This document shows positions 50,938 through 55,978 of a stretch of DNA of 64,000 nt, piece after piece. The stretch lies in NCBI GenBank assembly GCA_963779495.1, contig CAVZYM010000004.1, forward strand, positions 492,298 through 556,297, in the 5' to 3' direction. This DNA comes from an uncultured Pseudomonadota bacterium. GTDB taxonomy: Bacteria > Myxococcota_A > Polyangia > Fen-1088. The position numbers and the translations under genes are program-made. Under the pieces are notes generated by a model. It was not told where the DNA came from. It saw nothing but the letters and a program-made list of their open reading frames with translations, and did no database searches. The number at the start of each line of letters is the position of its first letter. Within the stretch, counting starts at the first letter, position 1.

Positions 50938-51937
50938 GTGTTGGGGTCCCGCGGCAGGTTCGCCCCCAGCCCGACCGGAGCTCTGCACCTCGGCAACGCG
51001 CGGACGGCGCTGCTCGCCTGGCTGGACGCGCGCAGCCGGGGCGGGGCGTTCGTGATGCGGGTCGAGGATCTCGATCGGGCGCGCGTGTCGCGACAAAGCG
51101 AGGCGGGGCAGCTCGCAGAATCTCAGGTGGCTTGGCCTCGACTGGGAGGAGGGGCCCGATCGCGGCGGTCCGTTCGCGCCCTACCGGCAGAGCGAGCGGA
51201 CCGCGCGCTACGACACCGCGATCGACGCGCTCCTGGCCGCGGGACGGGCGTTTCCCTGCGCCTGCTCGCGCGCGGACGTCGCGCGCGCCGCCAGCGCCCC
51301 GCACGCCGAGGACGAGGAGGGGCCGCGCTACCCCGGGACCTGCCGCGGCCGCGCGCGGGCGGAGGTGCTGGCCCGTGCGGTGACGCAGGGGCGGGCGCCG
51401 GCAATCCGCTTCGACGGCCGGGGCGAACGGATCGGGTTTCGGGACGAGCTCATGGGGGAGGTGGCGCCCGAGGCCGCGGGGGTCGACGACTTCGTCCTGC
51501 GTCGGGCCGACGGCGCCGCCGCCTATCAGCTTGCGGTGGTCGTCGACGACGCGGCGATGGCGATCGATCGCGTCGTTCGGGGCGCCGACCTGCTCCGCTC
51601 GACGCCGCGCCAGCTGGCGCTCTACGCCGCGCTCGGCCTTCCGGCGCCGGCGTTCGCGCACGTGCCGCTGCTGCTGGCGCCGGGCGGGGAGCGGCTGGCG
51701 AAGCGGACCCGTCCGGCCACCTTGGGGGCGTTGCGGACCGCGGGGATCTCGCCCGAGGTCGTCGTCGGCGCGCTGGCCGCCTCGGCGGGCCTTCGGGCGG
51801 AAGGGACGCGGGCCCGCCCAGCCGAGCTGGTCGCCGGCTTCACCCTCGGCGCCATCGGCCGCGAGCCCGCGACGCTGGACCTCACCGCGGGACGAGAGGA
51901 AACAGCGCCCGCGAGGCCGCCTCAATCTCGGCCGTGA
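50938..51937 (+). CDS. gluQ: glutamyl-Q tRNA(Asp) synthetase (frameshift near 51120)
   Basis: [51 protein letters not shown]; no anticodon-binding domain. Confidence 0.85.
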
Positions 51938-52376
51938 CAGCGGCCGTGTCGGCGAGCAGCGTCGCCCGCCCCGCCGCGATGTGGGCGGCCGCATCCGGCG
52001 CGACGCTTCCGTGGGCGGCGAGCTCGTCCTCGTCGAGGAGCTGGGGGGCGCCGCCGGGCAGGACCAGGACGTCGAGGATCAGATCGCGCCACTCGATTCG
52101 TTCAGCCCCCATCCGCGTCTGGTCGCAGATGTTGAAGTAATACCCGAGGGTCTGACCGTCCGGCGTCAGCCAGTGGTAGGCGTTGTAGAACCGATCGCTC
52201 CAGAAGTGGCCGAAGCTGATCGTCCCGCCCGGCAGGTCGACGCCGTGGACGTGCATCGGCCCGGGCGCCACCCAGAGGACCACGGCGTGGCGGTCGTCAC
52301 CCGCGAGGCGCTGGCAGGTGAATCGTTTCTCGCCCCCGGCCAGCAGGCGCTTGATCTCGAGGACCGGGGTCAGCAT
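51882..52376 (-). CDS. DUF402-domain protein
   Basis: FW.DRFYN.YHW...GYYFNI...DLILDV...LLDEDEL; 28 bp downstream of the rSAM gene on the same strand. Confidence 0.75.
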
Positions 52377-52404
52377 GACCGTGAACCCCTCCGGTCAGTC
52401 GCCG

Positions 52405-53552
52405 TCAGTCTTGGCGCTCGATGATCTTTCGCCGGATCGAGGCGGTCCGGCAGATGAACGGGTCGATGCCGGTGTAGCTACCCGACGCGTTGAACGACGC
52501 GCCTCGGTCGCGCGCGCAGTAGGCCTTGTCCGGGCAGGGAGCGCAGGAGCTGTAGTCGGACATCCGCAGCCCGCGTATGCGCTGGAACACCGGTGACGAG
52601 CGCCAGATCTCGGCGAACGGCTGCTCGCGTACGTTCCCCGCCGTCCAGGGGACCGAGATGCAGGGATAGACGTCGCCGCGCGACGAGACGGCACAGTTGC
52701 CACGCGCGCAGTTGCAGGCGAACCGCTCTTCGCTGACCGGCTGCGGCCCCTTCGGCAGAAGGTTGCGCAGGGGGCCGCTGGTAGAGCTGCTCCAGCTGCT
52801 GCTCATCGACCCGTGTCGCCAGGCTGCCGCCGTCGCCGTCGTGCCGCGTGGTGATGGTGACGTCGATGAGGTACGTGAAGCCTCTCGCGGTGGCGAACGC
52901 CCGCATCGCCTCGACCTCATGGGCGTTCGCTTTCATGACGATGAACTTCACGCGCACGGCGATCCCGAGACTGCGGCAGCCGGGCAGCCCCTTCCCAGGT
53001 CCGCCGCCACGAGCCCTGCACCTGGGTGATGCCGTCATGCACCTCGGCCGTCGCGCCATAGACGCTGATGCTGACCCCCAAGAGGTTGCGGTAGCCGGCG
53101 AGGCGGGCGGTCATTCCCGGCCGCAGCAGCGTGCCGTTGCTCAGCAGCTGGACGGCCAGGTTCAGCTCGCGCGCCCGATCGAGCACGGCGAAGAGGTGAG
53201 GGTAGGTCAGCACCTCCCCGCCGGTCAGCGACAGGAACAGGCAGCCGGCGGCCCGCAGGTCGGCGAGCAGCGCCAGGATCTCGGGGAGCGTCAGCTCGGG
53301 CTTCGCGTCGGCGCAGGCCGCGTCGCGCGCGGCCTTGGGCTGGTCGCGATCGAAGTTGTAGCAGTGCAGGCAACGGATGTTGCACTTGAGCGTCAGCTCC
53401 AGCGACACGTTGAGCGGCACGGTCTGCGCGAAGGCCTTGGTCTGCATCGCGCTCACGACCGCGTAGCTCGCGTCGGTGCCCACGACGGTCGAATCGGCGC
53501 ACACGGGCGCCTCCGTCTGCGGCGGACCGACGATATCGCCGGCGGCGCTCAT
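52405..53552 (-). CDS. radical SAM/SPASM peptide maturase (frameshifts near 52975 and 52775)
   Basis: ELTLKCNIRCLHCY (CX3CX2C), LTGGE, SNG, S.YG...HD..T; SPASM CNCARGNC...GDVYPC...GNV...CAPC.....C...C. Confidence 0.9.
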
Positions 53553-55207: not shown

Positions 55208-55365
55208 GACGTGGTGAAGCCCTGATCCGCGCACTGCTCCATGCCTATGTCGTTCTTGAGGCAGGCAAGGCTGTTCGACTCGAACAGCTGCCCGGTCTTG
55301 ACGCGCGGTCGCTGCCAGGCCTTCTTGCGCCGGGGCGGCTTTCGCTGCTGGGGTTTCTCTGCCAC
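55204..55365 (-). CDS. putative RiPP precursor peptide, 53 aa (MAEKPQQRKPPRRKKAWQRPRVKTGQLFESNSLACLKNDIGMEQCADQGFTTS)
   Basis: AAAGGA RBS before GTG 55365; WxxPxV RRE-binding leader motif; two Cys; stop overlaps kinase ATG. Confidence 0.8.
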   Translation of the reverse strand: MAEKPQQRKPPRRKKAWQRPRVKTGQLFESNSLACLKNDIGMEQCADQGFTTS

Positions 55366-55378
55366 GTCGGTCCTTTCT

Positions 55379-55978
55379 CTATTCGAGCTTGTCCAGCGCG
55401 CCCTTGGCCGCCACCCGCACGTCGCCCGCCGGATCCTTGGCGTGAACATGTCTGAGCTCGGCCAGCGCGTGTCGGGTAACCATGTGTCCGTTCGTCGTCT
55501 CGGCCAGTTCTCCGAGCGCCCACGCCGCGTTCTGGCGAACGTAGGGGCTCTTGTCGACCAGCAGGCGCTCGAAGAGCTCGGCCTGGTCCGACGACTTGAA
55601 CTTCCCGAGCACCCGGGTGCAGAACGCCCGCACCCGCTGGTCGCCGTCGGTCTCGGCGCAGGTCACCAGGGCCGGCGTGTAGCGCGCGGGCGTCCCGGTG
55701 AACTCTCGATCCAGGGCCAGCACGGTGTCGGCGTCGCGAACCAGGATCGCGTTGCGCCAGGACGACATCGCGGTCTCCACCCGTTTGGCTATCTCTTCAG
55801 GAGTGGCCGGAGGGGGCGGGGAGAGGTCGCGGGCGTGAAAGCCGCCGAAGCCCGGGCCCTCGGCCTCGCCGCCGGCCGCGCGCTGACGCGGGCCGGTCGA
55901 ACGGAGCGCGAACAGCCCAGCGCCCGTCACAGCAATCAACAGCCCGGCCGCGAGCCACGTCTTATCCCTCTTGGACAT
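55379..55978 (-). CDS. HEAT-repeat protein with N-terminal TM anchor
   Basis: D..RVRAF..RVLG, D.SPYVRQNAAWALG, D..DVRVAA..AL repeats. Confidence 0.82.
   Translation of the reverse strand: MSKRDKTWLAAGLLIAVTGAGLFALRSTGPRQRAAGGEAEGPGFGGFHARDLSPPPPATPEEIAKRVETAMSSWRNAILVRDADTVLALDREFTGTPARYTPALVTCAETDGDQRVRAFCTRVLGKFKSSDQAELFERLLVDKSPYVRQNAAWALGELAETTNGHMVTRHALAELRHVHAKDPAGDVRVAAKGALDKLE

Follow-up and report, generated by a model that had tools for sequence, protein, structure and literature searches.

A conserved candidate RiPP cassette of Polyangia that joins LPP-type enzymes to a radical SAM/SPASM protein

INTRODUCTION

Peptides that the ribosome makes and that are then modified post-translationally (RiPPs) are divided into classes by their primary modification enzymes. 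Here, we analyze a gene cassette that shares parts with several RiPP systems and lies on the minus strand of a 64,000-nucleotide stretch of contig CAVZYM010000004.1 (positions 492,298 to 556,297; assembly GCA_963779495.1), which belongs to an uncultured soil bacterium of the class Polyangia; this whole stretch is called the window, and positions are given in its coordinates. The cassette encodes a HEAT-repeat protein, a putative precursor peptide, a fused kinase/peptidase (KinPep), a discrete RiPP recognition element (RRE) and a radical S-adenosylmethionine (rSAM) enzyme with a SPASM domain.

HprK-like, PqqD-like and rSAM/SPASM proteins are also found together in Haft's uncharacterised SynChlorMet (ScmC/D/E/F) and HPr-rel-A cassettes, and we know of no S26 peptidase named in either set. 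To our knowledge, a kinase and a signal-peptidase-type protease are likewise unknown in sactipeptide/ranthipeptide and SPASM cross-linker pathways, whose rSAM/SPASM enzymes (SkfB, AlbA, CteB, StsB, PqqE, MftC and SuiB) resemble the present one in being guided by an RRE and in acting on short, Cys-bearing precursors. In the phosphorylated lasso peptides paeninodin and pseudomycoidin, an HprK-family kinase (PadeK and PsmK, respectively) acts on a precursor presented by a PqqD-like RRE, and both kinases are reported to act on the C-terminal Ser, whose side chain they (poly)phosphorylate (PMC6993621).

The linear polyphosphorylated peptide (LPP) clusters of Bacillota, LppA/K/B/S/D/N, were described by Popov et al. 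(Nat Commun 2026, PMC13381572). According to the main text of that study, LPP precursors have 35–200 amino acids (aa) with long and variable cores, and their leaders follow the consensus YxxPxVLxHQxIxFETxxS. The RRE of the set is a protein of its own, LppB (PDB 9x8z); LppK is an HprK-like kinase that polyphosphorylates Ser3 of the core, and LppS a SipW-like Ser/His/Asp peptidase that cleaves after T-1 and requires the RRE; an MsbA-like exporter and a nucleoside triphosphate (NTP) transferase (LppN) complete the set. The same text gives the final product and function as unknown and calls the family restricted to Bacillota, and the terms 'radical', 'SPASM' and 'Myxococc' do not occur in it.

In this study, we compared the window with these systems and with related loci in other genomes. 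We conclude, with a probability of roughly three in four, that the locus is a working RiPP maturation cassette in which LPP-type machinery has been combined with an rSAM/SPASM enzyme.

RESULTS

LPP-type enzymes in the window

We converted the LPP leader consensus into a DNA pattern, which retrieved 48 loci, all from Bacilli, and searched these loci using tblastn. The kinase part of KinPep (residues 1–310) matched 36 of the 48 loci (best 8e-12, alignments up to residues 11–286), the peptidase part matched 12 (best 1.7e-7), and the RRE of an orthologous locus, L019, matched 20 (best 1.3e-8, 32–35% identity). Two rSAM queries matched none of the 48. On these alignments, the kinase, RRE and peptidase of the window are homologs of the LPP enzymes. 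An earlier note on this DNA, made from the letters alone, had known of no characterised pathway with this enzyme set; this no longer holds for the trio of kinase, RRE and SipW-type peptidase, which the main text of PMC13381572 characterised in 2026.

The likeness extends to the leader, which carries [Y/W]xxP and ends in FE[T/S], to the discrete form of the RRE and, in 24 of 51 relatives from outside Polyangia, to a nucleotidyltransferase of family PF14907, the same 'NTP transferase' class as LppN and PsmN. In contrast to LPP clusters, the window encodes kinase and peptidase in one polypeptide, adds a HEAT membrane protein and an rSAM/SPASM gene, lacks an NTP transferase and an exporter in the cassette, and has a short, conserved core with two Cys, a Lys and a C-terminal Ser. 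As judged from sequence, the rSAM addition, the two-Cys (Cys2) core, the kinase–peptidase fusion and the HEAT partner thus lie outside the LPP description. The C-terminal Ser is also a point of likeness to the phosphorylated lasso peptides, being invariant in 41/41 Polyangia sequences and 59/60 sequences elsewhere, whereas the S26-type leader protease and the rSAM enzyme set the present cassette apart from them. No lasso cyclase or B2 protease was found between the tRNA-Arg and gluQ, where the six open reading frames (ORFs) are otherwise assigned, the rest of the genome lying outside this search; the claim that the cassette contains neither of these nor an exporter is therefore borne out at the locus.

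The fused kinase/peptidase

An alternative GTG at 55234, upstream of the ATG given in Table 1, would extend KinPep to 469 aa. Its kinase part (residues ~7–306) resembles P-loop kinases of the phosphoenolpyruvate carboxykinase (PEPCK)/HprK type and contains GRSGAGKS at residues 163–170 (54721–54698) and LSDE at 183–186. A conserved helix, REMISDFR (314–321), leads to a SipW/SEC11-type peptidase part (~330–460) with Ser338 (54196–54194), His382 (54064–54062) and Asp403 (54001–53999). Both the HprK-like kinase and the S26-type peptidase that had been predicted at this locus are accordingly present.

The 469-aa protein has no Pfam match, and all its NCBIfam matches are below the cut-off (ScmC 38 bits, sigpep_I_arch 29, HprK_rel_A/B 17–19). 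A sequence search of the PDB aligned the peptidase part to SEC11C (E = 5e-4) over SM.P (Ser338), HR (His382) and KGD (Asp403). An AF2 model built from a 73-sequence alignment had a pLDDT of 94.5 and a pTM of 0.92, and its residues 7–303 matched the fold of an ATP-dependent PEPCK (Z 15.0, rmsd 4.8, 252 aligned). All the fold matches shown were PEPCK chains covering residues 7–306, with no HprK/P or signal-peptidase chain among them, the peptidase domain not having been searched alone. The PEPCK fold class also includes the catalytic domain of HprK/P. Residues S165, G168, K169, T171 and D185 were conserved in ≥90% of the 73 sequences. In a representative library of 1.84 billion proteins, 4674 relatives of the window protein were found at E ≤ 1e-3 and 49 at E ≤ 1e-30; among the best 150, about 20 were full-length fusions, and the remainder were kinase-only proteins of 260–300 aa or fragments.

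A short ORF with the motifs of a precursor

We used the 469-aa protein to scan species-representative genomes and obtained 54 loci, of which L001–L040, all from Polyangia/Myxococcota metagenome-assembled genomes (MAGs), had a full-length match. The short ORF recurs in all 40, with a homologous start codon, mostly GTG, and a purine-rich stretch upstream; in the window, the GTG is preceded 6 nt upstream by the Shine–Dalgarno-like AGAAAGGA, as expected from the proposal that this ORF has its own ribosome-binding site. Residues 1–30 would form the leader, with WQRP at 55317–55306 and FES at 55284–55276, and residues 31–53 (55275–55207) the putative core, which holds NSLAC.K, another Cys further on and the Ser at the C-terminus. 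The 41 aligned sequences (40 distinct) show no variation at K4, W, P, G, LFE, NSL, C, K, C or the final S; between LFE and NSL, 39 of them have S, one has T and one has A.

We counted variable columns by codon position in the 21-codon gap-free block from W to K and obtained 12, 8 and 20 for the first, second and third positions. Because third positions vary most and the invariant residues use 2–5 synonymous codons each, the substitution pattern marks the small ORF as a real gene under protein-level selection, and its role as the conserved precursor of a RiPP-type cassette is supported. The earlier note had staked its proposal on a survey of homologous clusters for a small peptide of the form (Y/W)xxP...FE...LAC.K, and these clusters do carry one. 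The leaders have WxxP in Polyangia and YxxP in all other phyla; in a study of LPP and paeninodin, as far as we drew on it, the choice between Tyr and Trp in the leader determined which RRE was bound.

RRE and radical SAM/SPASM enzyme

The core of an RRE and an rSAM-SPASM protein, which had been read from the letters, is present (PF05402, PF04055 and PF13186). The RRE of L019 matched LppB (9x8z_B, E = 0.009) and PqqD (5sxy, 0.003) in the PDB, as well as lasso B1 proteins. The CxxxCxxC motif of the rSAM enzyme lies at 53384–53361, and C45, C49, C52 and six SPASM Cys are invariant in seven aligned enzymes. In a sequence search of the PDB, the nearest solved enzymes were SkfB (5e-26) and PqqE (2e-23). 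In the Polyangia enzymes (window ~52540–52500), the fourth Cys of the SPASM motif CX2CX5CX3C is replaced by Asp (C..C.....C..D), whereas Acidobacteriota and Dormibacterota enzymes have Cys. Extra Cys are also present upstream, in PCNCARGNC.

We scored window pieces and the intact orthologs of L019 and L102 against curated maturase models (bits/cut-off). No curated NCBIfam model was reached by any component from Polyangia or Acidobacteriota, except that the RRE of L019, and no other, touched TIGR04353 (PqqD_rel_X, 35.1/35). The best rSAM scores, AhbD 127/500 and MftC 104/265, were below cut-off. Among sactipeptide and ranthipeptide maturases, which differ in that the RRE here is a separate protein, the scores were AlbA 66/850, SkfB 32/300 (window fragment) and StsB 87/625; the mycofactocin and pyrroloquinoline quinone (PQQ) equivalogs gave 104–130/265 (MftC) and 81–92/381 (PqqE). 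ScmC is the best NCBIfam match of the kinase part, as would suit SynChlorMet, but that set was not reached either (ScmC 38/125, ScmE 47–97/400, ScmF 52–73/400 and ScmD 27/100), nor was HprK_rel_A of HPr-rel-A (17.5–21.8/200).

Conservation in Polyangia

Using tblastn with window pieces, we found the HEAT gene together with the small ORF in 40/40 Polyangia loci and the RRE and rSAM genes in 38/40, the two remaining contigs ending first. Given this recurrence across related loci, the gene arrangement is far beyond chance. The order to which the window belongs consists of one family with 89 genomes. KinPep was detected in 50 of these (45 strong matches; 5 weak ones covering the kinase part only) and rSAM in 45, in the same genera: both in 23/25 genomes of g1 and 7/8 of g8, and KinPep and rSAM, respectively, in 5/5 and 4/5 of g9 and in 4/4 and 3/4 of g10. 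Neither gene was found in the five genomes of g6, and almost none in g11 and g12.

In the window's own genome the cassette is single-copy. In all 12 loci whose contigs span both sides, it is found at one chromosomal position, gmd-fcl-unknown lipoprotein-response regulator ... gluQ-apt-M23 peptidase-pcm, and because of this fixed position it looks vertically inherited rather than mobile. Two rSAM matches at separate places, on different contigs, were found in one of the 89 genomes (G015); the two matches in each of G000, G069 and G071 are adjacent split pieces of one gene. A second, paralogous cassette with the order HEAT-precursor-RRE-rSAM lies in the same MAG as L010 (L060:3891-6152), and its precursor has the same WxxP...LFESNSLACGK motif with a different tail.

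Related cassettes in other phyla

Peptidase, kinase, RRE and rSAM are encoded by separate genes in L049 (low GC), L050 (Dormibacterota) and L052 (Acidobacteriota), where the small ORF is of the type ...YxKP......E.[IV][FY]ET.AL.CGK...C...S followed by the stop. An alignment-based scan with rSAM returned at least 562 relatives. The best 80 of these are mostly from Terriglobia and also include Planctomycetia, Methylomirabilota, Nitrospiria, Thermomonas, Anaerolineae, Dehalococcoidales and Omnitrophota. A precursor-like ORF, [Y/W]xxP...E[T/S]..L.C.K...C..., was found in 60 of 92 further loci, and 59 of these 60 end in Ser even though the relaxed pattern left the last residue free.

We clustered the proteins of 51 non-Polyangia loci, leaving out five short or atypical ones (L049, L069, L089, L107 and L131). 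The peptidase and rSAM were present in all 51 and the kinase in 50, and the usual order is precursor-peptidase-kinase-RRE-rSAM; an unassigned protein of ~620 aa with no Pfam or NCBIfam match occurs in 30. We found no published account of a cluster with kinase, S26 peptidase, RRE and rSAM in a search that covered neither supplements nor subscription journals; the supplements of the LPP paper (sequence similarity network clusters and co-occurrence tables), also outside this search, may list rSAM-associated SpI clusters. Judged by its sequences and this search, the family of kinase, RRE, peptidase and rSAM with a Cys2 core is widespread and so far undescribed.

Several further observations concern the range of these genes. 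The family is mainly found in Acidobacteriota (L058–L135, e.g. L102:3172-6089 and L133:3027-7478), and precursor, S26 peptidase, kinase, RRE and rSAM are encoded by separate genes in at least 51 loci, most of them from this phylum. Contigs binned as Planctomycetia have the Polyangia-like order of kinase then peptidase, fused in L062:2-961 and as two overlapping genes in L063:1613-2972, an arrangement that could reflect either an intermediate state or a mistake in binning. The kinase-only loci L041–L048, L051, L053 and L054 (Armatimonadota and others) have no such precursor and no rSAM match, and we set them aside as different systems. In the window's own genome, one PF14907 gene scores above the cut-off; its contig is a different one, none of its neighbours is a kinase, RRE or rSAM gene, and no link to the cassette was seen.

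Layout of the locus and neighbouring genes

The features of the locus are listed in Table 1. The six co-oriented ORFs that the earlier note had described are in the ORF list for the minus strand; we place them between tRNA-Arg(CCT) and a convergent gluQ. Three ATGA start/stop overlaps lie exactly where it had placed them (55207–55204, 53828–53825 and 53552–53549), the third being valid only when the RRE is read across its frameshift. Pfam matched its calls of HEAT, PqqD/RRE, rSAM, SPASM and DUF402 domains, and the indels it suspected are real features of the assembly, one in the RRE and two in the rSAM gene. The G+C content of the region is ~70%. No promoter-like and no terminator-like site was found in 51500–56700 with consensus sequences not made for the host phylum, and an Rfam scan of 51000–57000 returned nothing besides the tRNA.

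Table 1. Features of the cassette and its immediate surroundings (window coordinates)
Feature	Position	Strand	Evidence
HEAT-repeat protein, 199 aa, first cassette gene	55379..55978	-	Pfam HEAT_2 PF13646 4e-13, HEAT 8e-11
Putative precursor peptide gene, GTG start, 53 aa	55204..55365	-	Conserved ORF in 40/40 loci
Fused kinase/peptidase (KinPep), 460 aa from ATG 55207	53825..55207	-	NCBIfam sub-cut-off matches, AF2 model
Discrete RRE, PqqD family, ~92 aa via one frameshift	53549..53828	-	Pfam PF05402 1.6e-13
Radical SAM/SPASM enzyme, ~382 aa via two frameshifts	52405..53552	-	PF04055 9.5e-14, PF13186 7e-13
DUF402 protein, 164 aa, neighbour outside cassette	51882..52376	-	Pfam PF04167 1.2e-14
tRNA-Arg(CCT), upstream cassette boundary	56144..56218	+	ARAGORN; Rfam tRNA 63.4 bits

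The HEAT protein has one N-terminal membrane helix: all 27 orthologs examined have a hydrophobic 18-mer there behind seven K/R-rich residues, and the charge distribution weakly, not decisively, favours an N-in/C-out orientation. The HEAT gene also leads the kinase-less cassette of L060 and the low-GC cassette of L049, whereas this query found no HEAT protein in five genomes (90–99% complete) that belong to the same family but lack the cassette. A complex prediction for HEAT residues 60–199 with the 53-aa precursor (22-row alignments each) scored 0.02 against a mark of 0.32, which speaks neither for nor against an interaction.

The earlier note had counted DUF402 as part of the operon. The gene is adjacent and co-oriented here, but we rejected it as a cassette member: it was found in 26/40 loci, directly after rSAM in 18, whereas in 8 a distance of 1.9 kb or more and a DUF885 gene on the opposite strand separate the two, and in the cassette-less genome G006 it adjoins gluQ. 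DUF402 is a backbone gene outside the system. This is one of three points on which the earlier reading, otherwise largely right, is corrected; the others are the LPP precedent for three of the enzymes and the degenerate peptidase of most relatives. The DUF885 insertion (Pfam E ~1e-159) between rSAM and DUF402 occurs in L007, L010, L012, L015, L016, L021, L033 and L039.

On the other side of the tRNA, a 408-aa predicted lipoprotein with no Pfam family (56638–57864, plus strand) lies beside a response regulator (56276–56668) and fcl/gmd (57916–59876), and it is conserved in the syntenic backbone of ~20 loci. Published LPP clusters also sit in polysaccharide loci; the likeness to the fcl/gmd backbone may be a coincidence.

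DISCUSSION

The gene content, homology, conservation and distribution of the cassette are matters of observation. On this basis, a maturation route can be proposed by analogy with the known systems. The discrete RRE, given its homology to LppB, PqqD and lasso B1, would bind the precursor through the WxxP motif of the leader, and the rSAM/SPASM enzyme would cross-link, by a radical reaction, the conserved core x-[A/S]-L-x-C-G/x-K ... C .... The kinase half would phosphorylate a Ser, and the best candidate is the invariant C-terminal one, because it is the only Ser conserved across phyla and the HprK-family kinases of lasso peptides act at that position in the reports consulted (PMC6993621). By analogy with LppS, the peptidase half would cut after LFE-S30, the equivalent of FET in LPP, to release a 23-residue core; the presumed −1 position tolerates S, T or A, and its flanking residues are invariant. 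In Polyangia, these steps would be carried out with kinase and peptidase fused and with a membrane-anchored HEAT protein that always accompanies the cassette.

Several observations weigh against a working cassette of this kind. We infer its chemistry, the order of its steps and its biological function from sequence. Family matches below threshold, together with a PEPCK-like fold, are the basis of the kinase assignment. The rSAM enzyme falls in no curated family, and its nearest solved relatives differ in product (a thioether for SkfB, a C–C bond for PqqE), so that more than one type of cross-link is conceivable. The acceptor Ser at core position 3 of LPP precursors is absent, that position being Leu in 41/41 Polyangia sequences and in other phyla, and the spacing from P to FE in the window leader is two residues shorter than in the LPP consensus. 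The Polyangia cassette has no exporter, the L060 cassette has no kinase/peptidase gene, and two of the five cassette genes in the window are broken as assembled.

The peptidase domain provides a further point of this kind. We compared the 36 near-full-length orthologs among 41, dropping L025, L028, L034, L035 and L037 as partial or frame-split. The Ser, His and Asp motifs are all kept in 12 of the 36, the window included; the other 24 have lost the Ser motif together with a segment of ~30 residues that holds KGD, and a quick maximum-likelihood tree requires two losses, in clades of 6 and 18. Leader removal by this domain therefore cannot be a requirement of the family in Polyangia. The earlier proposal of release by an S26 protease fits the window, whose motifs are intact, but does not hold in general. 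The pre-domain helix REMISEFR.FLRK and the kinase half are conserved in all 36 proteins. The dead domain may have been retained as a docking surface for the RRE–leader complex; in LPP, the N-terminal helix of LppS touches both LppB and the leader (PMC13381572).

A first alternative accepts the same cassette and assigns it another purpose, namely a cell-bound, peptide-derived cofactor or physiological signal like PQQ or mycofactocin, perhaps acting with the HEAT protein. We regard this as possible, though rather doubtful. A single-copy, vertically inherited cassette in a fixed slot among housekeeping genes, near-universal in genera g1, g8, g9 and g10, is consistent with such a role, as are a core, L.C.K...C...S, that is kept across phyla, which is unusual for antimicrobial RiPPs, an invariant C-terminal residue as in MftA, the place of MftC and PqqE among the best full-length rSAM matches, and a Polyangia cassette that encodes no means of export. 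In contrast, 9 of the 51 non-Polyangia loci have ABC-2 exporter genes directly upstream, the leader peptidase is of the signal-peptidase type, the MftC and PqqE models score far below their cut-offs, and the cassette has no conserved neighbour that could be a partner oxidoreductase.

The second alternative concerns the reaction. A Cys-derived thioether is favoured by the two invariant Cys and by SkfB being the best solved relative; we give it about even odds, because PqqE and MftC score similarly and because Lys37 and the terminal Ser match the Cys in invariance. The rSAM enzyme may instead make no Cys thioether and perform another radical reaction on the core, such as epimerisation, a C–C or C–N cross-link at the invariant Lys, or an oxidation at the C-terminal Ser, the two Cys then forming a disulfide. 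This seems to us the less probable course, although the variable acceptor positions, a Cys spacing of 5–11 residues, the Asp in the Polyangia SPASM motif, and scores for PqqE (C–C) and the MftC model (C-terminal decarboxylation) about equal to that of SkfB all point to it. Two invariant Cys, a SPASM enzyme and an RRE form the classic signature of sactipeptides and ranthipeptides, and the core lacks a conserved aromatic residue for a cyclophane-type link.

The third alternative is that the window cassette is decaying, its three frameshifts being real and the locus a pseudogenised remnant. Alignment with orthologs places one frame change near 53611–53598 in the RRE and two in the rSAM gene, near 52976 and 52776–52772. 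The three indels lie within ~1.4 kb and are confined to two adjacent genes, with HEAT, precursor, KinPep and DUF402 intact, as decay would predict. A read search found three soil-metagenome DNA runs from two studies (shares of sampled words 0.05–0.07) and listed no RNA run; it yielded a few pieces of 151 nt that agree exactly with parts of KinPep and no near-identical read contig over the three frameshift sites, which are thus not covered by public reads.

Nevertheless, we consider decay unlikely and the frameshifts most likely long-read assembly errors. The genome has 6.23 Mb in 5 contigs with 68% marker completeness, the usual sign of uncorrected long-read indels. Two housekeeping genes nearby, pcm and gluQ, are likewise broken between frames (49072–50062 and 50938–52140), and indel errors are therefore likely throughout this assembly. 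One of the three indels falls in a run of five C and another in a CC pair. Other few-contig assemblies of the genus, G069 and G071, give split matches of the same kind, whereas orthologs in short-read MAGs (L003, L008, L014, L019 and L060) are intact single ORFs with RREs of 89–97 aa and rSAM enzymes of 383–392 aa; the RRE of L002 is intact as well, within the same range. In addition, orthologs align to the window in three frames with 60–69% amino acid identity in every frame piece.

Finally, binding and modification of the small ORF product are predictions, and the HEAT protein is a constant companion of the cassette, but a different substrate for the enzymes, be it some other peptide or the HEAT protein itself, is highly improbable, since the small ORF combines the [Y/W]xxP RRE motif and FE[S/T] peptidase motif of LPP precursors (as given in the main text of PMC13381572), accompanies the enzymes in every phylum despite differing gene order, and shows protein-level selection.

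A bolder reading, which we offer tentatively, is that the cassette represents an undescribed RiPP class that crosses phyla (Acidobacteriota, Myxococcota, Planctomycetota, Methylomirabilota, Dormibacterota, Nitrospirota and others), with a nearly universal core of about 20 residues, L-x-C-G-K ... C ... Ser-COOH, that would be both radical-cross-linked and phosphorylated at the C-terminal Ser and, in Polyangia, vertically inherited, cell-bound and not exported. In that class, the Polyangia peptidase might be a dead docking domain, the leader might stay attached, the membrane HEAT protein could be an obligate partner and the product may be nearer to a peptide cofactor or signal than to an antibiotic. 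If true, the combination of a thioether with a C-terminal phospho-Ser would be one that is unreported in the literature searched.

These results indicate that LPP-type machinery exists well outside Bacillota, where it is coupled to an rSAM/SPASM enzyme and a short Cys2 core, and that its hosts include dominant, poorly cultured soil phyla (Acidobacteriota and Polyangia). The fused, unfused and catalytically dead forms of the peptidase constitute a natural series for RRE-guided leader peptidases, and a predictable substrate of ~23 residues would allow these kinases, peptidases and the new rSAM clade to be probed. For the myxobacteria, the cassette provides a candidate for a conserved physiological peptide.

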